Below are positions 3,110-40,896 of a stretch of DNA of 64,000 nt, one piece after another. Numbering within the stretch: the first letter of the stretch is position 1; the number at the start of each line of letters is the position of its first letter. Source of the stretch: an uncultured Candidatus Saccharibacteria bacterium (GTDB taxonomy: Bacteria; Patescibacteriota; Minisyncoccia; Phycocordibacterales; Phycocordibacteraceae); the NCBI GenBank assembly GCA_964507275.1, contig CAZDPG010000001.1, positions 468,577 to 532,576 on the forward strand. The letters run 5' to 3'. The position numbers and the translations under genes were made by a program. Under the pieces are notes generated by a model, which did no database searches, was not told the origin of the DNA, and worked only from the letters and a program-made list of their open reading frames with translations.

Positions 3110-4171
3110 TTATAGATAATTCTCGAAGGTCTTCGGGTCGAGCGCGTGCTCATACGCATGCTCGACCGTCACTTCCCCGCGCTGTACAAGCTCGGCGAGC
3201 GAGCGGTCCATGTCGATCATGCCTTCCTGCGAAGAGGTCTGGACCACGGCGCTAATCTCATGCGTTCGCGAATCGCGAATGAGAGTGCTCACGGCGCTGT
3301 TGTTGATGAGAAGCTCGCACGCCGGAATGAGCCCTCCTGATATGCGAGGAATGAGACGCTGGGAGAAGATGCCTGCGAGGCTTCCTGCGAGCTGTACGCG
3401 CACCTGACCCTGCTGCTCTGCAGGGAACATGTCGATGATGCGATCGATAGTCTGCGCGGCATTATTGGTGTGCAGCGTGGATAGCACGAGGTGACCAGTC
3501 TCGGCGGCGGTCACCGCCGAAGAAATGGTCTCGTAATCGCGCATTTCACCGACCATGATGACGTCGACGTCTTCGCGGAATGCGCCTTGTAGTGCGGTGT
3601 GGAAATCCGGCGTATCGATATAGATCTCGCGCTGATGAATGAGCGACTTTTTCGGTGCGAAAAGATATTCGACAGGATCTTCAATAGTGAGGATGTGCTC
3701 TGAGCGCGACTCATTGATACGGTCGATCATAGCGGCGAGCGTTGTCGATTTCCCCTGCCCCACCGGCCCAACGACGAGGAAGAATCCCTGCTTATGCTGC
3801 GTAAAGGTCTCAAGGATAGAAGGGAGATTCAATTCGGTGAACGTACGAAGTGCATGTGGTATGAGACGGAGCGCGAGCGCGATCGTTCCCTGTGCGTAAA
3901 AACCGTTGATGCGGAAACGCGAGTCCGACTTGTGCGTATAAGAGAGATCGATAGCCTGATTCTCCCTGAAAGCTTCCCATCGATCCGACGGCACGAGGCT
4001 TTTCAATATCGCTTCGGTCTCCTCGCTGGTAAATGCTGGGTATTTCGTGATGGGAATGAGCGTGCTCGCGACACGGATCATCGGCGACCCACCGGCAAAA
4101 ATATGGAGATCCGAGCCGCCCTGACTGACGACGAGATCCAAAAGCTCCTCGAGACGCTTGTCGCTTGTCAT
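3110..4171 (-). CDS. pilT: Twitching-motility/retraction ATPase PilT
   Basis: 353 aa. Walker A GPVGQGKST, Asp box, His box. PilT-like length and motifs. Confidence 0.9.
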   Translation of the reverse strand: MTSDKRLEELLDLVVSQGGSDLHIFAGGSPMIRVASTLIPITKYPAFTSEETEAILKSLVPSDRWEAFRENQAIDLSYTHKSDSRFRINGFYAQGTIALALRLIPHALRTFTELNLPSILETFTQHKQGFFLVVGPVGQGKSTTLAAMIDRINESRSEHILTIEDPVEYLFAPKKSLIHQREIYIDTPDFHTALQGAFREDVDVIMVGEMRDYETISSAVTAAETGHLVLSTLHTNNAAQTIDRIIDMFPAEQQGQVRVQLAGSLAGIFSQRLIPRISGGLIPACELLINNSAVSTLIRDSRTHEISAVVQTSSQEGMIDMDRSLAELVQRGEVTVEHAYEHALDPKTFENYL

Positions 4172-6423: not shown

Positions 6424-6720
6424 TTATTTTTCTATAACGCCAGGGATAGGAGCAAAAGGATCGATACGCCCGGGCGTTTCAGGCGTGACGGGCGTCGTAA
6501 TATCAACAAGCGACATGAAATTCGGATCGGAGAATATCGCGCTATTGAACGAAATCGGCTTCAGTTCGCTCACGAGCACCTGAAACTGTGTTTGCGCAGC
6601 ATTCTGAGAAGAAGATGTCGTAAGTGCTGGCTGCTCCCCCTCCCCGGTGGACATAAACCAATACGCGCCGGCTGCAACGACGAGCGTGACGATGATGAGC
6701 GTTACAGGATTTGTTTTCAT
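6424..6720 (-). CDS. Small membrane-anchored pilus-operon protein (PilP-like?)
   Basis: 98 aa with an N-terminal TM anchor, then a periplasmic Ser/Thr/Pro-rich region. Sits between pilB and the pilO-like gene. Confidence 0.4.
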   Translation of the reverse strand: MKTNPVTLIIVTLVVAAGAYWFMSTGEGEQPALTTSSSQNAAQTQFQVLVSELKPISFNSAIFSDPNFMSLVDITTPVTPETPGRIDPFAPIPGVIEK

Positions 6721-7958: not shown

Positions 7959-9035
7959 TCAAATCTCTTCGAGCTTGCGGAGCGCCAGGCCGACGGCTAC
8001 AGCGAACTCCGGACCGATCTCCTCAAGGACTGGGCGCATGAATGCCGGCGCTTCGGTCTTTACAAAAGGATCCGCGACGCGCACATCGATTGAGAACGTC
8101 TCTTTCGCATAGGCGGCAAGCTCCTTTGTAACGCCGCCACCGCCAGTGAGCACGATCGAAACGACCGATTTCTTATGTGATGTCTCATACTGCATGAGCA
8201 CGCGGCGCGCCTCTGAGAATATCCGCGAGAAGACGAGCTCCGGACTTCCGAGAGGAGCATCCCCATCCCCGAGACCTTTTTCCTTCTTCAGAGCTTCAGC
8301 ACGGGCGAGCGAGACGCCACTCGAAATCGAGATAGCGCGTGTGATGTCCTGACTACCCGTACTGATAGCGTGCGAAAGAGCCACGATTCCGTGCTCGACG
8401 ACATAGGTCTTCGTCGAAGCCGCGCCGATGTCGAGCACCATGACGGGCTTTATCGGTTCATCGACGACCGCGCGTATGGTGCTGAATATCTCAATCTCAA
8501 AGAAGCTTGCATTGAGTCCTGCGCCGGCAGCGACTCTCTGAAGCAGGGCGAGCTCGTCGTTATGGACAGCCACAACAAGCACTTCTACGGTCTTGCGCTC
8601 TTCTTCCTTCTCCGAGGGGTCCATCTTCGGCACGACGAACCAATCGAGCTGAATCTCGCTCATCGGTACCGGGATATACTTCCGCGCCTCGAGCTCGATG
8701 ATGGTCTTCTGCTCTTCTTTATCCTTGCTGTACGGCAGCTCGACGAGAGAAAGGAGCGAACGAGCGAATGGAACGGAGACGCCGCAGCTTGTCGTCGTCA
8801 CTTTCGCTTCGCGCAGAAGATCTGTCAGGGTCTCGGTAACCTGCTCGGCGGAAAGATTCGTGGCTTGTCCCACTTCCCCGCCCCCATACGGACCGAGCGC
8901 AAGCTCTCCATACGTCTCGAGTATCGCCTTGCCTCCCTCCTTGCGCAGCTGCACTACCTTCAAAGAAGAAGAGCCTATATCGACGCCGAGAACGCTCTGT
9001 TCTTTCTTTGCGAATAGAAAATCCAAGAATGCCAT
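7959..9035 (-). CDS. pilM: Type IV pilus assembly protein PilM (actin-like ATPase fold)
   Basis: LGVDIGSSSLKVVQL N-terminal actin-fold motif. Start chosen at MAFLDF, since the ORF-track start at 9083 would overlap comF. Confidence 0.85.
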   Translation of the reverse strand: MAFLDFLFAKKEQSVLGVDIGSSSLKVVQLRKEGGKAILETYGELALGPYGGGEVGQATNLSAEQVTETLTDLLREAKVTTTSCGVSVPFARSLLSLVELPYSKDKEEQKTIIELEARKYIPVPMSEIQLDWFVVPKMDPSEKEEERKTVEVLVVAVHNDELALLQRVAAGAGLNASFFEIEIFSTIRAVVDEPIKPVMVLDIGAASTKTYVVEHGIVALSHAISTGSQDITRAISISSGVSLARAEALKKEKGLGDGDAPLGSPELVFSRIFSEARRVLMQYETSHKKSVVSIVLTGGGGVTKELAAYAKETFSIDVRVADPFVKTEAPAFMRPVLEEIGPEFAVAVGLALRKLEEI

Positions 9036-9707: not shown

Positions 9708-10709
9708 ATGGCTAAACAGTTGAAAGATAGAAGAGCCGTATTCCCCGCTGGTAAGCAAAAGTTCTTTTTAGAAAGCGTCGGACAAAAGATGACGATCGTG
9801 GACATGGCTCGCATCTGTCACTGCTCCGAACGCACGATTCGCGATTGGCGGCGAGAAAAGTTTTCTATGCCGCTTCCAGCGGTTCATACACTCTCAGCAC
9901 GAACACAGGTTTCAATTCCTAAAAACATTGAGATTAAAGATGCATACGCGCATATCGCAAAAGCAAGCAGGATGGGTGCTGCCGCAACCATTGAGAGATA
10001 TGGTCGCATTCCTCGCGATGAGCAGTACCGTAAAGAGCAGTGGCAAGCCTGGTGGGAATCAGAAGGTAAGTTCAAGAAGAATCCGATTCTTGAATCAAAA
10101 GAAATTGATAAACCAAGACGCAGCGTGGAGCTCGCAGAATTCATCGGAGTCATGATGGGCGATGGAGGCATCAGTACCTATCAGGCTACCATCACACTCC
10201 ATCACGAGGATGACCTGGAATACGCCGCCTTTGTAACAAAACTTATCAAAAGACTCTTTAAGATAACGCCGAGCGTTTATCATTTTCCGAAGAGATCTGT
10301 AAATAACATCGTCGTATCTCGGAAAGAATTGGTTGAGTATTTGTGTGCGCTTGGATTACCTATTGGAAACAAGGTGAAACAGCAACTCAATATCCCCGAA
10401 TGGATAAAGAGAAATCAGAAATTCTCGATTGCCTGCTTACGAGGACTTGTCGATACCGATGGGTGTATTTTCACCCATCGGTATCGTGCGAAAGGCATCT
10501 GGTACGCTTATAAGAAAATTTCTTTCACGAGCGCTTCAGAGCCATTGCGAAAGTCAGTCCACGCCATTCTGCAAGAACTAGGATTTCATCCACGAGTAGC
10601 TACTCACGATGTACGCCTCGATCGGATTGAGGATGTGAAGCGATATTTTGCAATCATCGGCAGCCATAATCCGAAACATTTGAGAAGATACGGAAATACG
10701 CTAGGATAG
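9708..10709 (+). CDS. LAGLIDADG homing-endonuclease-like protein with N-terminal HTH
   Basis: Two LAGLIDADG-type motifs, FIGVMMGDGGIS and LRGLVDTDGCIF. N-terminal 60 aa are HTH-like (MARICHCSERTIRDWRRE). Lower GC than neighbours. Confidence 0.7.
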   Translation: MAKQLKDRRAVFPAGKQKFFLESVGQKMTIVDMARICHCSERTIRDWRREKFSMPLPAVHTLSARTQVSIPKNIEIKDAYAHIAKASRMGAAATIERYGRIPRDEQYRKEQWQAWWESEGKFKKNPILESKEIDKPRRSVELAEFIGVMMGDGGISTYQATITLHHEDDLEYAAFVTKLIKRLFKITPSVYHFPKRSVNNIVVSRKELVEYLCALGLPIGNKVKQQLNIPEWIKRNQKFSIACLRGLVDTDGCIFTHRYRAKGIWYAYKKISFTSASEPLRKSVHAILQELGFHPRVATHDVRLDRIEDVKRYFAIIGSHNPKHLRRYGNTLG

Positions 10710-10716
10710 CCATACG

Positions 10717-10805
10717 GGATGGGTGACTGAGTGGCCGAAAGTACCACACTGCTAACGTGGCAGGGGCGTTAAAACCCCTCGAGGGTTCGAATCCCTCCCC
10801 ATCCG
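10717..10805 (+). tRNA. tRNA-Ser (anticodon GCU)
   Basis: Acceptor GGATGGG/CCCATCC, anticodon loop CUGCUAA, long variable arm, T-loop GGTTCGAATCC, discriminator G. CCA not encoded. Confidence 0.85.
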
Positions 10806-10814
10806 CACATCAAT

Positions 10815-12928: not shown

Positions 12929-13906
12929 TTATTCAAGCTCTGTTGGTAATTCGCTGATGCGTGCTGAAAGCTTCCATGCATTCCCATGCCGGAGCATCCC
13001 CCGATACGACGCAACCGTGGCTTCGCTCGGATTACCACTCATCGCCCGCAGCATCCTCCTCTTCGTACTCGTGCGGAGTACGCGATGGTCAGGAAAATGC
13101 ACCCAGCCGAGAAAATCGATGCCTGAAGTGAGCGTTGCTATGGAGACTTTTTTTGGATGTAGCTCAAGCTTTAGTTTCTCGTGCAAGAAGTCTCGGATGC
13201 GTGGCAGAAGCGAGACAAGCTGATCGCGGTCACGAGAGAGGAAGACGAAATCATCAGCATAGCGGATGTAGTGTCTCGCTTTCAGTGTGTGTTTCGCAAA
13301 TTGATCGAACTCGTTCATATAAATGTTCACGAGGAGCTGGCTTGTGAGGTTACCGAGCGGGAGACCCTTCCCTGTTTCTGTGCTTGAGAAGCTTCCGATG
13401 ATGTTCTTCATGAGCGAGAGAGTACGTTCGTCGGGAATATATGAGTGCAGTATCTCCATGAGTGTTTGCTGGTCAATGGAAGCGAAGAACTTCCGTATGT
13501 CGCATTTGAGTACCCAGCAGATGCGTGTATCGTTCTGCGATACTTTCTGAGCACATGATCGGAATTGGTTCATCGCCCGGTGCGTACCCTTCCCCACGCG
13601 ACAGGAATACGAGTCAGCGACAAAGGTACGGTCGAAGAATGGGTAGAGCTGGCGATAGAGGGCATGGTGCACAAGCCGGTCGCGGACTGAGGCCTTGTGA
13701 ATGTCGCGCGGCTTCGGGTCCGCAATCTTGAAGTGGTGGTAGCCGCCGTGCTGATAGGTGCCAATGGCGAGGTCGTGATGGAGCACGAGGATGTGGTGCA
13801 TTAGATGTCGACCGAACTCCTGCACGTCAGCACGCTTCTTCTTTCCTCTTACGAATTCCTGCCACGCATCGAGAAGATTTTCGATTGAGATGATATCCTC
13901 ATACAC
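12929..13906 (-). CDS. Diversity-generating retroelement reverse transcriptase
   Basis: 325 aa. Closely parallels Bordetella phage bRT: IENLLDAW, PKPR...DRLVHHAL, GLPLGNLTSQLL, RYADDFVFL (YxDD), GIDFLGW. Starts at a GTG codon. Confidence 0.92.
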   Translation of the reverse strand: MYEDIISIENLLDAWQEFVRGKKKRADVQEFGRHLMHHILVLHHDLAIGTYQHGGYHHFKIADPKPRDIHKASVRDRLVHHALYRQLYPFFDRTFVADSYSCRVGKGTHRAMNQFRSCAQKVSQNDTRICWVLKCDIRKFFASIDQQTLMEILHSYIPDERTLSLMKNIIGSFSSTETGKGLPLGNLTSQLLVNIYMNEFDQFAKHTLKARHYIRYADDFVFLSRDRDQLVSLLPRIRDFLHEKLKLELHPKKVSIATLTSGIDFLGWVHFPDHRVLRTSTKRRMLRAMSGNPSEATVASYRGMLRHGNAWKLSARISELPTELE

Positions 13907-13958
13907 AAGACTCCATGAGCAACCCCCCCCCCGACAGTTTCTTCCGGTACTTGAGAGA

Positions 13959-14306
13959 TTGAAAAGTGCATACCTGCTTTGGTATGGATATTATCAGACA
14001 CTCCCTAAGACGCATCGCCACACACTCGGCGGAAGAGTGGACACGCTTTTTGTCGAAGTAATCGAGGCGATAGCTTCAGCGACATTTCTCTCCCGTAGCG
14101 AGAAGCAGCCCTGGGTGCGGCTCGCTATCCGAAAACTCGACACGCTGAAAGTACTGCTTCTCGTGCTCTGGGAGACCAAATCTCTTGAGACGAAAAAATA
14201 CGCCGCACTTTCGCTCCCGCTTGAAGAGGTTGGCAAAATGCTCGGCGGATGGAATGGACAGCTCACGAAGCAAAACTCAACCCCGCTAGTGCGGGGCGAA
14301 GAGTGA
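13959..14306 (+). CDS. avd: DGR accessory variability determinant (Avd, four-helix-bundle)
   Basis: C-terminal LEEVGKMLGGW matches the bAvd AEVGRILGSW motif, and LPKTHRHTLGGR matches IPRKHGVAR. Opposite strand to the RT. Start ambiguous: TTG at 13959, or ATG at 13915, which is out of frame unless the C10 tract 13923-13932 becomes C11. Confidence 0.7.
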   Translation: MKSAYLLWYGYYQTLPKTHRHTLGGRVDTLFVEVIEAIASATFLSRSEKQPWVRLAIRKLDTLKVLLLVLWETKSLETKKYAALSLPLEEVGKMLGGWNGQLTKQNSTPLVRGEE

Positions 14307-14312
14307 AGATAG

Positions 14313-14421
14313 TTGCGGGCAGGGACACCGGACAGGAACCAGTTGTCGTTCCAATCGTTGTCGTTGCGATTGCAGTTCACGTTCCGATCGTCATTCCAAC
14401 GATTGAACGTCAGGTAGCAAT
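14313..14421 (-). repeat. DGR template repeat (TR), 109 bp
   Basis: 97 of 109 identical to the 3' end of the target gene. All 12 mismatches fall at TR adenines on the coding (minus) strand. Rich in AAY codons. Confidence 0.9.
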
Positions 14422-14682
14422 GTGTGGAGCGCCATCCGTATCACCACCCTTCGAGTACTCTCAGGGCTGTCTGCGGGGGTTCCGCGGTCTTCGGCATCAT
14501 AATGCCATAGCACTCCACACCAAGTATCTTCATTTTTTGAAGTGTCTGCGTGCATCCTCCATGTGCAACCGTAATCACAAATGTTCTCAACGCACGGATA
14601 CTGGGTTCAGCAGGAAGAAACCATGATCGCCCCCATATTCGCCTACTACCGTGTGTATACTATCAAATACAAAATGGGCCCG

Positions 14683-14710
14683 CATTCCGGAGAATGCGGG
14701 CCCAAGGACA
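14683..14710. promoter_or_regulatory. GC-rich hairpin downstream of VR
   Basis: GGGCCCGCATTC-TCCG-GAATGCGGGCCC, a 12-bp GC-rich stem with 4-nt loop. Lies about 50 bp 3' of the VR end in coding direction. Confidence 0.5.
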
Positions 14711-14756
14711 AAGTCTCAAGGTTCCAAAGAGAACCGAGTGACCGAGCCCCGAGTAC

Positions 14757-15353
14757 CTACTTGCGGGCAGGGACACCGGACAGGAACCAGTAGTCGAGCC
14801 AAGCGCTGTCGTAGCGATTGCAGCCCACGCCCCGACCGTCACTCCAACGATTGAACGTCAGGTAGCAATTGTCGCCCCACTGCGAGCCATTCGGGTACTT
14901 GTCGGCGAAAGCGGGATCCTCTTCGTTCACTGCGGCTGTCGCGCGCGGGTCAGGCACGAGGCCATACTGCGCGAGAAATGCCGGAACCTCGGCCACGGGC
15001 ACAAGGCGCTTGGTCGGAACGAAGTACACATCGACTTCGTCACCCTCACCTTGCGGCATCGTGGCGACCACATCGTCGTTCAGGTACTTGTTGCGGCCGG
15101 TCTTATCGATGACTTCCTGCGGAGTGCGAGTGCGATCGACGCGGACGCGGCGGATGATGATATCGCTCTGTGCTTCGACATACTTGCGGAGAGTCGCAAC
15201 CATCTCATCGATAGCCGGATTCCCGGGCATCTCGAGGACTTTCTGCACACTTTCCGACAGAAGACCGGACTCGCGAAGTTTCGTTGCAAGCCGGTCATTG
15301 ATCTGGCCAATCTGGCCGTTGGTGATGGACTGGGTCCTGACATTGGTTGTCAT
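14757..15353 (-). CDS. DGR variable (target) protein with C-terminal VR
   Basis: 198 aa. C-terminal 36 codons are the VR (CYLTFNRWSDGRGVGCNRYDSAWLDYWFLSGVPARK). No signal peptide. N-terminal region has no recognisable family. Confidence 0.85.
   Translation of the reverse strand: MTTNVRTQSITNGQIGQINDRLATKLRESGLLSESVQKVLEMPGNPAIDEMVATLRKYVEAQSDIIIRRVRVDRTRTPQEVIDKTGRNKYLNDDVVATMPQGEGDEVDVYFVPTKRLVPVAEVPAFLAQYGLVPDPRATAAVNEEDPAFADKYPNGSQWGDNCYLTFNRWSDGRGVGCNRYDSAWLDYWFLSGVPARK
14761..14869 (-). repeat. DGR variable repeat (VR), 109 bp
   Basis: Aligned to TR 14313-14421. Ends 2 codons before the stop, with a GC-rich 3' end GTCCCTGCCCGCAA shared with TR (IMH-like). Confidence 0.9.
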
Positions 15354-15549
15354 TACGTTATCCTCTCAAGGAAAGCTGTACGACTCGACCCAGACGGGTT
15401 TTCGCCACAGCAGAAAAAAGCTTAGCGAATATGCCGTTTTCTGCTGGGGCGAACACTGGTCTCAAAGAGCGGAATAACTAGGACATAGTATACACGATAT
15501 ATGTATCCTGTCAATAGCCTTGGTACTACATCAGGAGATGCCGTGCCCA

Positions 15550-35280: not shown

Positions 35281-35356
35281 AAACCCGCACCCATCCAGGT
35301 CACCGTTCGCGGTGGCCTGGTTTTCTTTCGCACCGCCTTATATCTTCTTTACTGAC

Positions 35357-35396
35357 TCTTTCGTAATCTCCCACGTCTGCCCTGCCTCAGGGACGA
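35357..35396. repeat. 40-bp perfect direct repeat (second copy 36027-36066) within a ~70-bp diverged duplication
   Basis: TCTTTCGTAATCTCCCACGTCTGCCCTGCCTCAGGGACGA occurs twice. Copy B is the 3' end of the MBL gene. Copy A is an out-of-gene remnant encoding ...VVPEAGQTWEITKESVKKI*. Confidence 0.75.
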
Positions 35397-35474
35397 CTGC
35401 ACTCGCATCATTACCTATCCCTTATTCATCACGGTCGTGAAGTATAGAGGATAAGATTGCTCGGAAACATGTCG

Positions 35475-36007: not shown

Positions 36008-37399
36008 TTAGACCTTCTTCACCGATTCTTTCGTAATCTCCCACGTCTGCCCTGCCTCAGGGACGATGGCAGAGCCGCCGAGGTAGTCGTGGATGCGCTG
36101 GGCGAGGAATCGTTCGGCAGAAGGCTCGCCATGAGCTGTGAAGATGGCTTTCGTCCGTTTATCGGCAAGCGCTGCTTCGGCAAATGCGAGGAGCCCGTCG
36201 CGATCGGCATGGGCTGACCAGCCTTCAAGTTTCTCTATCTTCGCCTTTATCTTTACTTCAGCACCGGCGATACGCACACTCGATGCGCCCTCCATCATGC
36301 GTCGCCCCGGCGTGCCAGGGGCCTGGTAGCCGACCATAAAGAGCGTGGTGGCGGGGTCGGGCAGATAGCGTGTCTCCCAGCGACCGATGCGGCCGCCATG
36401 ACTCATCCCCGCGCCGGCGATGATGATTTTCGGCCCCGGTACCTTCTCTATCGCCATCGACTCTTCGCTTGAAAGTGTCTGTTTCAAGAATGGGAATTCG
36501 AAAATACTCCCTTCTCGCCTCATCTCATCCTCTGTCTCTTTTTTGAAGTATGTCATCCCCCACTTCTCGTACACTGCAGTCACATGTATGGCGAGTGGTG
36601 AATCGAGAAAGACGGGAACCTTCGGCAGATCTCCTGCGTCAAAGAAGTTGGAGAGCTCGTAGAGCATGAGCTGAGTGCGTTCGACCGAGAAAGCGGGAAT
36701 GAGGATTGTACCTCCTCTTGCTATGGCTCGCTTCATCTCTTCAAGCAAAAGAGGTCCGCGATTTTCTTGATTCGGGTGCTGTTTGTCTCCGTACGTGCTC
36801 TCCATCACAAGCGCATCAGCATCCGGCACTGGCTCCCAGTCAGGGAGAAGCGGCGAAGGAGAGTTACCGATGTCGCCGGTAAATGCGACACTCGTCCCTT
36901 CCTCGTCTCTGATGCGCACACTCGCCGAGCCGAGGATGTGACCCGTGTTGCGCAAGTAGGCCGAGAGCCCGGGCGCGACCTCTTTCTCCGTATGATATTC
37001 GAGCGTCTCGACGAGCGAGAAGGCAGTCTCGACATCGTTGATGTCGTATAAAGGAAGCCTCCCTAGACGCCCAGCTTCTTCTGCGAGGATGTGCGAGGAA
37101 TCGAGCAGGATAAGAGCTGCGAGGTCCCGCGTTGCTGGCGTCATGAATATCTTTCCACGGAAGCCATCCCGCACAAGCTTCGGTATGCGACCGACATGGT
37201 CGAGGTGAGAATGCGTCACGATAAGAGCGTCAATCGTTGTGACGTCATACGGGAACGGCCCGTACATGCACTCTTCGCAGAAGTCACCTCCCTGCTCGAT
37301 ACCGCAATCAACAAGAATCCTTCCCTTCGCTCCGGTGATTAAAAAGTTTGAGCCGGTCACCTTGCCTGCTCCGCCGTAGAAACCGAGTCGTAATGCCAT
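36008..37399 (-). CDS. MBL-fold beta-CASP RNA-metabolising hydrolase
   Basis: 463 aa. HSHLDHVG (HxHxDH) and beta-CASP motifs. Typical bacterial MBL fold metallo-hydrolase RNA specificity domain protein. Confidence 0.85.
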   Translation of the reverse strand: MALRLGFYGGAGKVTGSNFLITGAKGRILVDCGIEQGGDFCEECMYGPFPYDVTTIDALIVTHSHLDHVGRIPKLVRDGFRGKIFMTPATRDLAALILLDSSHILAEEAGRLGRLPLYDINDVETAFSLVETLEYHTEKEVAPGLSAYLRNTGHILGSASVRIRDEEGTSVAFTGDIGNSPSPLLPDWEPVPDADALVMESTYGDKQHPNQENRGPLLLEEMKRAIARGGTILIPAFSVERTQLMLYELSNFFDAGDLPKVPVFLDSPLAIHVTAVYEKWGMTYFKKETEDEMRREGSIFEFPFLKQTLSSEESMAIEKVPGPKIIIAGAGMSHGGRIGRWETRYLPDPATTLFMVGYQAPGTPGRRMMEGASSVRIAGAEVKIKAKIEKLEGWSAHADRDGLLAFAEAALADKRTKAIFTAHGEPSAERFLAQRIHDYLGGSAIVPEAGQTWEITKESVKKV

Positions 37400-38983: not shown

Positions 38984-39553
38984 TTAAATCTTGAGGATAC
39001 TCCTCACTTCCTCTGCGATAACTTCAGGCGGCCGATGGCCATCAACCTCGGTGAGGATACCTGCCTGGCGCAGATAGTCGATTGCTCCTTCTGTGCTTGA
39101 GTAATATTCCTCAAGACGCTTGTGGACGACCTCTGCATGGTCGTCAGGCCGAGATCCGTTCTCGCGACGCAGCGCGATACGCGTATGAACCTCTTCATCG
39201 GGGACACCGAGATGGAAGATGTAGAACGGTCGGTTGAGCCACTTGAGCGACTCGGCAACGATTTCTGCTTCAGGCACGGTACGGCTTGTACCATCGAAGA
39301 TGACATTTCCACCCTCCGGGATACCGAAGAGGATTTTGAGGTAGACGTACGAAGCGAACCAGTAAGGAGTAAGCATTCCGGTATCCATGGTCTCCTTGAG
39401 CTTGTGCCCGACGGGACCGCCTGTCGCCACGATCTCGCGTAGTCCACCGCTCGTGCCAACCACCGGCCAGCCCGTCACATCTGACAGTAGCTTGGCCTGC
39501 GTCCCCTTCCCGCTCCCCGGTTTCCCGATAAAAAATATGATTGGCTTTTCCAT
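38984..39553 (-). CDS. adk: Adenylate kinase (short form)
   Basis: P-loop GKPGSGKGTQ. 189 aa. Confidence 0.9.
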   Translation of the reverse strand: MEKPIIFFIGKPGSGKGTQAKLLSDVTGWPVVGTSGGLREIVATGGPVGHKLKETMDTGMLTPYWFASYVYLKILFGIPEGGNVIFDGTSRTVPEAEIVAESLKWLNRPFYIFHLGVPDEEVHTRIALRRENGSRPDDHAEVVHKRLEEYYSSTEGAIDYLRQAGILTEVDGHRPPEVIAEEVRSILKI

Positions 39554-39621
39554 CTGCCCACTCTAGCATCACAACACAAAACACGCGACAGCAGAGCTGT
39601 CGCGTGTTTTGTGTTGTGAAA

Positions 39622-40896
39622 TTAGTACTCGCGGAGGGAAACTTGCGCGTCTATCTTGCGAGCAAGATCAAGTGTGACCTGGACAGCGATGAGGAGCGCA
39701 GTGCCGCCGAGGACGAGCGTCGTGACACCCGTGAGACCCTGAATGATCGACGGAGCAACCGCAAGGAGGCCGAGGAAACACGCGCCAGGGAGCGTGATAC
39801 GGTTCACGACGTTCCCGATGTACTCCTCAGTCTCGCGGCCAGGGCGTACGCCTGGGACGAAGGCTCCTGTCTTCTGGAGGTTCTCAGCGACACGCTTCGG
39901 TTCGAAAGTGACGGCCGTGTAGAAGTACGTGAAGAGCACGACGAGCGCGAAGTAGACAGCTCCGTACTTCCAAGGATTAGAGAGGAAAGCCGTGTACCAG
40001 AGCGCCGCCGAAGAGGCGAAGGATACATGGATTGCATTCAACATCGAAAGCGCCATCTGCGGCACAAGAAGAAGCGAGAGTGCGAAAATGATAGGAATCA
40101 CGCCTGCCTGAAGGAGGCGAATCGGGAGGTACGTCGCCGCACCCTGCGCGAGCGCCGCGCCGCGCATCGCCCGAGCATAGGCAATCGGGATAGAACGCTC
40201 AGCATCAGAAACAACAACCACCGCATAGACCAGTGCCGCGGCGAGGAACGTAAATGCCAAGTACGAAGGGATATTCGCGGCAGTCGCGGCAAAGATAGTC
40301 TGCGCGATGCTTGCCGGGACGCTCGCAAGGATGCCCGAGAGAATAATAAGTGAGACGCCGTTGCCGATGCCGAACTCGGTCACGAGCTCGCCAATCCACA
40401 TAAGAAGGAGTGATCCGGCGGCGATAAGCGCGATATTCGCGATGAGTGCGACCGTATCGAGCTGCCCTATGACATTCTGACCCTGGAGAAGGAAGAGGAA
40501 TCCAACGGCCTGCAATACTGCAATCGGGATTGTCAGGAGACGGCTCCACTCGATGAATTTCGCGCGGCCGGCCTCCCCTTCCTCAAAATATGCGGTCTTC
40601 ACCTGTGGGAAGATGATGGTCGCGAGCTGCATGATGATCGATGCAGTGATGTATGGACCGACGCCGAGCATTACGATAGAGAGCTGAGCGAGACCGCCGC
40701 CCGAGAAGATATTCAAAAGACCGAAGAACTGGTTGCTCGCGAAGAAAGATGCGAGCGCAGCTTTGTCGACGCCCGGGATAGGCACGGCAGCGAGGAAGCG
40801 GAAAAGCGCGAGTGCGCCGATGACGAACAAGATGCGAGCGCGGATTTCTGAATCGCCAAAAGCGAGTTTGACCTTGCGAAAGAAGGAGTTAATCAT
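39622..40896 (-). CDS. secY: Preprotein translocase SecY
   Basis: 424 aa, 10 TM helices, conserved SecY plug and hinge regions. Confidence 0.95.
   Translation of the reverse strand: MINSFFRKVKLAFGDSEIRARILFVIGALALFRFLAAVPIPGVDKAALASFFASNQFFGLLNIFSGGGLAQLSIVMLGVGPYITASIIMQLATIIFPQVKTAYFEEGEAGRAKFIEWSRLLTIPIAVLQAVGFLFLLQGQNVIGQLDTVALIANIALIAAGSLLLMWIGELVTEFGIGNGVSLIILSGILASVPASIAQTIFAATAANIPSYLAFTFLAAALVYAVVVVSDAERSIPIAYARAMRGAALAQGAATYLPIRLLQAGVIPIIFALSLLLVPQMALSMLNAIHVSFASSAALWYTAFLSNPWKYGAVYFALVVLFTYFYTAVTFEPKRVAENLQKTGAFVPGVRPGRETEEYIGNVVNRITLPGACFLGLLAVAPSIIQGLTGVTTLVLGGTALLIAVQVTLDLARKIDAQVSLREY

Follow-up and report, generated by a model that had tools for sequence, protein, structure and literature searches.

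Is the cassette at positions 12929–15353 of a 64,000-nt stretch of contig CAZDPG010000001.1 (assembly GCA_964507275.1; the whole stretch is called the window here) a complete diversity-generating retroelement (DGR), and how would such an element be organised and controlled? With a probability of roughly 90%, the locus is a chromosomal DGR of the type designated TR-(avd)-RT, or architecture B3, in bacteria of the Candidate Phyla Radiation (CPR), and its carrier is a Parcubacteria-like groundwater bacterium. Its parts are arranged in the order target gene ending in the variable repeat (VR), terminator hairpin, separate noncoding RNA (ncRNA) gene, inverted avd running towards the 3′ end of that RNA, and diverging reverse transcriptase (RT) gene. 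Within the ncRNA gene, an extended −10 promoter is followed by a leader of ~230 nt, the 109-nt template repeat (TR) and a conserved tail that contains a terminator-like hairpin. The original prediction for this DNA had proposed a complete DGR with RT, Avd and a TR/VR pair. The hallmarks are indeed present, although the class is the already described CPR architecture B3, defined as TR-(avd)-RT and comprising 90% of the CPR set (Wu et al. 2018, PMC5758913). The element is one more member of a class abundant in CPR bacteria, and its existence is not new. Its leader and a repeat tract in avd look undescribed; if they truly are, the regulation of DGRs and the priming of complementary DNA (cDNA) in B3 elements become directly testable. 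B3 is the commonest architecture among environmental DGRs.

Repeat pair, reverse transcriptase, Avd and target

The TR (14313–14421) and the VR (14761–14869) lie on the minus strand at an offset of 448 nt. An exact recount gave 97 identities over 109 nt. All 12 mismatches correspond to a T on the plus strand of the TR, that is, to an adenine on the coding (minus) strand, and comprise seven A>G, three A>T and two A>C changes. Given 28 adenines in 109 nt, the hypergeometric probability that 12 of 12 mismatches fall on adenines by chance is 9.7e-9. The TR adenines are confined to the first (11) and second (17) codon positions of the VR reading frame, with none at the third. The TR includes nine AAY codons, and the resulting amino acid changes in the VR are N>S, D>G, N>G, N>G, N>Y, N>S, D>A, N>L and N>Y. 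These counts reproduce those of the original prediction, which gave 97/109 identity, 12 of 12 mismatches at minus-strand TR adenines out of about 28, substitutions of all three kinds, and Asn codons converted to Ser, Gly, Tyr, Leu and Ala codons; no mismatch at a base other than adenine was found in the 109 nt. The VR spans the final 36 codons of the target gene, ending 4 nt before its stop codon, and the variable columns of the target-family alignment coincide with the AAY positions. A GC-rich segment of 27 nt (14763–14789 in the VR, 14315–14341 in the TR, minus strand), identical in the two repeats, directly precedes their terminal AA and is read from its sequence as similar to an initiation of mutagenic homing (IMH) element. 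Since this segment has no adenine on the coding strand it is immutable, and it would thus retain the homology needed for cDNA integration.

The RT gene (12929–13906, minus strand) starts with GTG, preceded by GGAG, and encodes 325 residues that match Pfam RVT_1 with an E value of 1e-25. A sequence search of the PDB identified 8ub7_A, which from its sequence we take to be the bRT of the Bordetella phage, as the best solved relative (E value of 9.4e-49 over residues 3–290). The best group II RT in the same search scored 1.6e-18, approximately 30 orders of magnitude behind. The motifs LGNLTSQ and RYADDF, the latter containing YADD, are present and the alignment extends over bRT residues 10–285, in keeping with the lengthwise alignment to Bordetella bRT and the motifs quoted in the original prediction. 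An RT of group II intron, retron or defence type, accompanied by a 109-nt repeat that is an ordinary duplication or gene-conversion tract, would be the obvious competing explanation. The best NCBIfam model is in fact the group II RT/maturase TIGR04416, with 151.8 bits. However, it ranks first because NCBIfam contains no DGR RT model, and the score is half of the 300-bit cut-off. Models of retron and defence-associated RTs (DRTs) score far below their own cut-offs (retron St85, 63 versus 235 bits; Drt3a, 77 versus 200; Drt2, 60 versus 390). The RT therefore fails the profile cut-offs of all three classes. Scans of the window with Rfam gave no match to a group II or retron RNA, either at the gathering score or at E values up to 10. 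These results, the lead of bRT among solved structures, mismatches exclusive to adenines at a chance level of 1e-8, and the same layout with A-specific differences in dozens of loci make the competing explanation extremely improbable.

The accessory gene avd (13890–14306, plus strand) encodes 138 residues from the ATG at 13890; the sole other in-frame start is a TTG at 13959. Its product scores 42.5 bits with the Pfam model PF22296 (bAvd), for which the gathering cut-off is 40, and the earlier identification of the small ORF (open reading frame) beside the TR as Avd, from its motif EVGKMLGGW, is thereby supported. The original prediction did not mention the orientation of the gene. It is encoded on the strand opposite to that of the RT, TR and VR, such that it converges on the 3′ end of the TR and diverges from the RT, and it is inverted at the same position in related loci.

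The target gene (14757–15353, minus strand) encodes a protein of 198 residues with a helical N-terminal part followed by a C-type-lectin-like domain. The VR forms the C-terminus of the protein, and the modelled fold agrees with the first of the two folds expected beforehand, C-type lectin or formylglycine-generating enzyme (FGE). Neither a signal peptide nor a hydrophobic segment was seen when the protein sequence was inspected by eye, and the target is probably a cytoplasmic binding protein. PDB sequence searches with the target and with Avd returned nothing useful. The target family, with a typical length of ~200 residues and at least 190 members, represents an uncharacterised, widespread and diversified lectin-like protein of ultra-small bacteria that looks cytoplasmic. 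A putative sigma-70-like promoter of the target gene, TTGACA-16-TATACT, was recognised at 15487–15514 (minus strand) by its match to 11 of 12 consensus positions. Downstream, a terminator scan located a GC-rich hairpin with a 13-bp stem and a 4-nt loop, followed by a U run, at 14675–14704 (minus strand), 53 nt past the target stop codon. A hairpin and T run occur at the same spot after the target in related loci. The hairpin is read as the probable terminator of the target gene and possibly serves also as the DGR target-site hairpin.

The well-known DGR of phage BPP-1 (bRT, Avd, TR and the target Mtd) shares most of these components. The RTs align over nearly their whole length, including the LGxxxSQ and YADD motifs; both elements possess an Avd homologue, adenine-only TR/VR differences and a VR at the C-terminus of a protein with the C-type lectin fold; and in both the 3′ end of the repeat is poor in A and rich in GC, the VR is followed by a GC hairpin, and a stem-loop lies close to the TR on its 3′ side. 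However, the order of the parts differs, being target, TR, inverted avd and RT in the window, and target, avd, TR and RT in BPP-1. The BPP-1 element is carried by a phage and diversifies the tip of a tail fibre, whereas the window element is chromosomal and its 198-residue target lacks an export signal. In addition, a distance of 53 nt separates the window VR from its downstream hairpin, which resembles a terminator, and avd contains a homopolymer tract. The B3 DGRs of CPR and DPANN organisms are closer still. They have the identical core order and orientation with avd on the reverse strand, Parcubacteria-like groundwater hosts, and small targets that lack known domains and end in the VR; no structural difference from them was identified.

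When the target-family alignment was used to scan genomes, one for each species, 102 relatives were obtained, of which 80 were kept. Approximately 40 of these 80 loci share the cassette, comprising target, a 300–450-nt spacer, TR, inverted avd and RT, and in them adenines account for all, or almost all, of the differences between TR and VR (17/17, 18/18 and 20/20, for example). The remaining loci contain paralogues of the target, and no DGR lies within 4 kb of these. The same order of genes also occurs in ~90 metagenome loci among the matches listed. On one 652-kb contig, the TR of locus L021 (5046–5142) matches, with 15/15 A-specific changes, the VR of a second target, L054 (4407–4503), situated 200 kb away, which indicates that the lineage can act in trans. 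Two further loci, L045 and L053, share the same TR and 99.1% identity over 5.4 kb. About 38 of their 46 differences are located in the VR at TR-adenine sites, in an apparent second variable region 3′ of the RT, and in G tracts. This pair is direct evidence of natural DGR activity for the lineage, not for the window organism. The cluster downstream of the RT consists of ~23 differences within ~110 nt (L045, ~8126–8234) and looks like a second variable region. These two loci also contain further G9–G10 tracts (at 6513 and 8361 in L045, and at 3404 and 5253 in L053), one of which differs in length.

Some observations weigh against the presence of a working DGR in the window organism. The placement of the RT in the DGR clade is based on the contrast between best hits and on sequence motifs. 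The Avd protein, despite passing the Pfam model, reaches only 60.4 bits (E value of 1.8e-16) with the NCBIfam model NF033474 (DivGenRetAVD), for which the cut-off is 80; that match begins at residue 18 of the ORF starting at ATG 13890. In addition, the locus is uniform among the assemblies. Contigs of the locus were recovered by means of the target and GroEL proteins, the exact 325-residue RT being absent from the records because gene callers had picked other starts. Groundwater metagenome contigs of up to 673 kb carry the exact target and GroEL proteins (PRJNA292723 runs, JGI 3300009031 and Logan assemblies). The 3-kb cassette including the VR is 100% identical in all contigs, which originate from at least six samples or assemblies, and the cluster of targets at 90% identity consists of a single sequence. 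Thus, there is no consensus-level sign of present diversification at the window locus. The mutagenic retrohoming put forward in the original prediction is supported as regards the adenine-only footprint; ongoing diversification is not, the same VR being found in every assembly. This uniformity is what would be expected if the DGR were intact but silent, or nearly so, in the sampled population, the pattern in the VR then dating from earlier retrohoming and having become fixed through selection or a clonal bloom. Such silence is considered unlikely, though it deserves serious weight. The absence of any non-adenine difference between TR and VR in 109 nt, the full-length RT with its YADD motif and the avd reading frame, which is in frame with the upstream ATG at the present length of its C10 tract, all argue against it; minority variants are hidden in consensus assemblies, and close relatives do diversify. 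Breaks of Logan contigs at window position 14762 were considered as a sign of VR heterogeneity and rejected, as an exact repeat of 31 nt between TR and VR begins at that position, which accounts for a break at k = 31.

The template RNA

A block beginning at ~14650, between the target gene and the TR, shows strong conservation even among genomes with only 40–60% identity between their proteins. An extended −10 element, TGATAGTAT (14657–14665, minus strand; TGnTAnnnT), immediately precedes this block. The TGnTAnnnT pattern, ending 6–7 nt before the conserved RNA start, was found in 106 of 136 distinct relatives, versus a background of 2.4%. The block itself (14422–14652, minus strand) corresponds to a structured leader of the DGR template RNA, ~230 nt in length with ten helices, and occurs once in the window (nhmmer E value of 3e-58). 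RNAalifold analysis of 30 sequences yielded 56 base pairs in the ten helices, 42 of which exhibit compensatory changes. In this structure 96.9% of the alignment cells are paired, compared with 37–51% when the partners are slid by 1–3 columns. The number of double-change cells is 300 versus 32–55 in the slid controls, and none of 500 shuffles reached the observed values. Several conserved G-U pairs indicate that the RNA strand is the TR-sense strand. A long-range helix of 12 bp, formed by 14509–14520 and 14422–14433, ends exactly at the first base of the TR. The fold of the single sequence 14652–14275 reproduces the leader helices, with a minimum free energy (MFE) z score of −3.6. Rfam 15 contains no match to the leader even at E values up to 10. 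The leader, its promoter and the repeat tract at the start of avd find no mention in the accessible DGR literature.

Two leader motifs were used in an exact-pattern scan of metagenome contigs, which located the leader in at least 120 loci. Among the matches listed that have enough flanking sequence, an inverted avd is located at about +200 to +600 and the RT from about +620. A target-family gene precedes the leader in only ~20 of the listed loci and a different gene in ~100 of 120. The association of the leader with inverted avd and RT, whatever the upstream gene, in at least 100 loci indicates that it belongs to the TR-(avd)-RT core and not to one target. These data also bear on whether the conserved block might lie outside the template RNA and instead encode a small protein, or serve the target as a 3′ untranslated region or regulatory element. 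Its position directly downstream of the target and the presence of ORFs of 50–110 codons in single genomes might suggest so. However, these ORFs differ in frame and strand from locus to locus, and no ORF consistent in either was found in the VR–TR spacer across loci. Moreover, the block has its own −10 box and is preceded by a terminator, the 42 covarying pairs and the G-U pairs of the TR-sense strand are those of an RNA, and avd and RT remain at a fixed distance where the upstream gene is unrelated to the target. A protein gene or target-associated element is accordingly very improbable, and the block is best described as the leader of the template RNA.

About ten of the listed leader matches are orphans with no avd or RT nearby. 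Eight of them (L103, L111, L121, L128, L165, L190, L197 and L203) have several kb of downstream flank without either gene. The orphans may be remnants, or else template RNAs that stand alone and are served in trans. Locus L098 contains two leaders 2.4 kb apart (4076–4168 and 6445–6535), the first followed by avd and a truncated RT and the second by an intact avd-RT pair; a degenerate DGR and an intact one stand here in tandem.

On the other side of the TR, the 3′ tail of the template RNA (14280–14312, minus strand) is antisense to the 3′ end of avd. It comprises UAUCUUCA at 14304–14311, the hairpin GCCCCGC-ACUA-GCGGGGU at 14280–14297 and a U-rich run. The tail segment UCUUCAUUUC (UAUCUUCA in the window), the hairpin and the U run are kept in 40 loci, and the hairpin, of 6–7 bp, covaries. 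The tail is complementary over 8–9 nt to the leader segment AAAUGAAGA (14527–14535), just 5′ of the 12-bp helix. This leader partner lies ~105 nt before the TR in the sequence, and the 12-bp helix brings it next to the TR. Searches with RNAduplex, in which interior loops are free, gave uninformative partners for the tail, and a contiguous-helix search was used instead; it returned the leader–tail pairing as the top contiguous match in ~19 of 29 loci. The AAAUGAAGA/UCUUCAUUU pairing is formed in 88% of cases versus 44–59% in slid controls, yet covariation is thin and the sequence nearly invariant. The ninth pair is A-U 33 times and U-A five times, with C mostly unpaired, and there are a few other compensations.

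By analogy with the Bordetella element, the leader–tail duplex is a candidate counterpart of the duplex of upstream and downstream segments that brackets the TR there. In Bordetella, RNA flanking the TR, mainly the 3′ spacer, wraps the bRT-Avd complex, and the accompanying survey of DGRs spanned 40 nt upstream and 100 nt downstream of the TR (Handa et al., preprint 10.1101/2023.10.23.563531). BPP-1 also contains the RT-10 motif between TR and RT (Weinberg et al. 2017, PMC5737381). A structured RNA of the Bordetella type was not found between TR and RT in the window, where the interval is antisense to avd, has no Rfam match and contains only a short stem-loop. Thus, whereas the essential spacer RNA of BPP-1 lies 3′ of the TR, the large structured RNA of the window lies 5′ of it and has its own promoter. 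In layout the window RNA also resembles the retron ncRNA (msr-msd), where the part that is reverse-transcribed comes after a structured part that binds protein, and the segments flanking the template pair. The likeness ends there: retron RT models fail (63 versus 235 bits) and no retron RNA match was found. A retron keeps its product as multicopy single-stranded DNA (msDNA), whereas the product of the window element would recombine into a gene. The leader and its candidate pairing with the tail offer a defined RNA with which to ask how B3 DGRs recruit RT-Avd and prime cDNA synthesis when an antisense gene occupies the region 3′ of the TR.

The repeat tract in avd and a proposed mechanism

The 5′ part of avd contains a C10 homopolymer (13923–13932, plus strand; G10 on the RT strand). 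The homopolymer encodes PPP and precedes the RT start codon, which is on the other strand, by 17 nt. It is the sole G/C run of at least 7 nt in the 64-kb window. The same slot, read on the RT strand, is occupied by G8–G12 in 25 of 30 genome loci and by (CTGG)n, (CTGA)n or (TTGG)n in the others. Among the matches listed, 78 further metagenome loci contain G7–G16 in 64 cases and (GT)n in three. Tract length differs in five of seven near-identical pairs with 100% identical 300-nt flanks (9/11, 11/10, 10/8, 9/7 and 9/10), and in three pairs of 1.2–6.4 kb it is the sole difference, or nearly so. All contigs of the window organism contain C10, with no length variation seen. Assemblies break at the tract in several loci: L004, an assembly of the window organism, ends at window position 13932, L073 has a run of N after (CTGG)14, and the contig of L075 ends there. 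Either heterogeneity in tract length or difficulty in sequencing could account for these breaks.

The conserved Avd segment LLPVLxK is located downstream of the tract, and its frame was compared with that of the upstream start codons. Of 98 tract-bearing loci, 43 including the window have an in-frame start upstream of the tract and 55 do not. No start codon is present between the tract and LLPVLxK in 49 of these 55 loci, and a change of ±1 nt restores 52 of them to the frame of the upstream ATG. Loci L170 (C9, avd in frame) and L201 (C10, avd out of frame) are 99.9% identical.

These findings can be accommodated in a mechanism modelled in part on BPP-1. The RT and Avd would bind the template RNA and copy the TR into cDNA with random bases opposite adenines. 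The cDNA would then take the place of the VR, with the A-free, GC-rich 3′ segment as its guide, and the replacement would recode ~17 codons on the face of the C-type-lectin-like domain. The RNA scaffold that recruits the proteins would be located 5′ of the TR, and its last helix, which abuts the TR, could stop cDNA synthesis. Pairing of the tail sequence UCUUCA back to the leader AAAUGAAGA would place the TR in a loop between two helices. In avd, the C10 tract would act as a slippage-prone switch for the supply of Avd and hence for mutagenesis. The combined proposal, a mutator that is itself a contingency locus, with the avd tract switching retrohoming and an autonomous ncRNA of ~380 nt carrying its scaffold 5′ of the TR, is offered tentatively, at slightly less than even odds. 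If it is true, switching off would let cells freeze a useful VR variant. The tract thus provides a concrete hypothesis for how mutagenesis is regulated so that adaptive variants escape overwriting.

The proposal has precedents in the contingency loci of other bacteria, such as the tetranucleotide repeats of Haemophilus, the poly-G/C tracts of Neisseria and Campylobacter and the poly-C tract of Bordetella fim. There, too, the repeat lies in the 5′ coding region or promoter, repeat types are interchangeable among relatives, lengths are polymorphic in near-identical strains, and in-frame and out-of-frame states are mixed. However, those loci control a surface antigen or a restriction system, whereas here the controlled gene would encode the accessory factor of a mutator. 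Literature searches returned no paper linking DGRs with homopolymer tracts or with phase variation of the element itself.

Several points count against this scheme. The leader is well supported as a structured RNA with its own promoter, whereas its role as a protein-recruiting scaffold is a proposal. The tail segment has rivals to its pairing with the leader, namely a local CUUC/GAAG hairpin and a second possible partner, in addition to the thin covariation. The repeat and its length polymorphism are observed, whereas its function as a phase-variable switch stands at about even odds. The tract could alternatively be no switch at all, but an element of fixed role in the 5′ untranslated region or promoter spacer of avd or RT, or Avd could start non-canonically after it, with the length differences being errors of homopolymer sequencing or of assembly. 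This alternative is a real contender, at odds clearly below even. Homopolymer calls in short-read assemblies are error-prone, in Illumina consensus sequences particularly at G/C runs of 9 nt or more, and C10 is present in every contig of the window organism. In the window and in some other loci an ATG lies upstream in two of the three frames, such that a strict ON/OFF behaviour does not follow; transcriptional slippage or non-canonical starts could also bypass the avd frame. Nonetheless, the substitution of (CTGG)n, (CTGA)n, (TTGG)n and (GT)n at the same site suggests selection for repetitiveness and not for a G-specific motif. A start after the tract is opposed by the lack of start codons in 49 of the 55 out-of-frame loci and by the rescue of 52 by a single-nucleotide change, and sequencing error is a poor explanation for 2-nt differences between contigs with 100% identical flanks.

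Genomic setting and other features of the window

Annotation of the neighbouring genes shows that the DGR cassette is chromosomal. Gene context identified a CsoR-type repressor, an HMA/DsbD_2 protein and a cupredoxin on one side. On the other side are an ABC ATPase, an FtsX permease and an HlyD-like adaptor, followed by GroES/EL; SecG and RNase J are also nearby. These neighbours agree with the earlier placement of the cassette between a metal-homeostasis operon and an ABC efflux operon. The accompanying statement that the window lacks phage genes held for the ~14 kb of flanks over which it was checked. Named homologues belong to Parcubacteria, Paceibacterota, Kaiserbacteria, Yonathbacteria and Minisyncoccota. 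The host is a groundwater bacterium with a Parcubacteria-like chromosome.

Two adjacent genes on the minus strand (898–1347 and 1370–1819) encode type IV pilin-like paralogues of 149 residues, the 122-nt 5′ ends of which are 93% identical (GFTLIELLVVIAIIGILS...), and adjoin PilC- and PilT-like genes. The resulting repeat (1208–1329 and 1677–1798) was considered as a second TR/VR pair and rejected, because it represents the shared N-terminus of the two paralogues and its mismatches are not A-specific. An ORF of 333 residues (9708–10709, plus strand) ends 8 nt from the tRNA-Ser(GCU) gene at 10717–10806. Two LAGLIDADG-like motifs (MMGDGGI and LVDTDGCI) were recognised in it by eye, and it may be a free-standing homing-endonuclease-like gene. 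Elsewhere, a direct repeat of 64 nt with 89% identity occurs at 35338–35401 and 36008–36071, 670 nt apart, and an imperfect inverted repeat of 46 nt with a 3-nt loop is located at 39547–39641.

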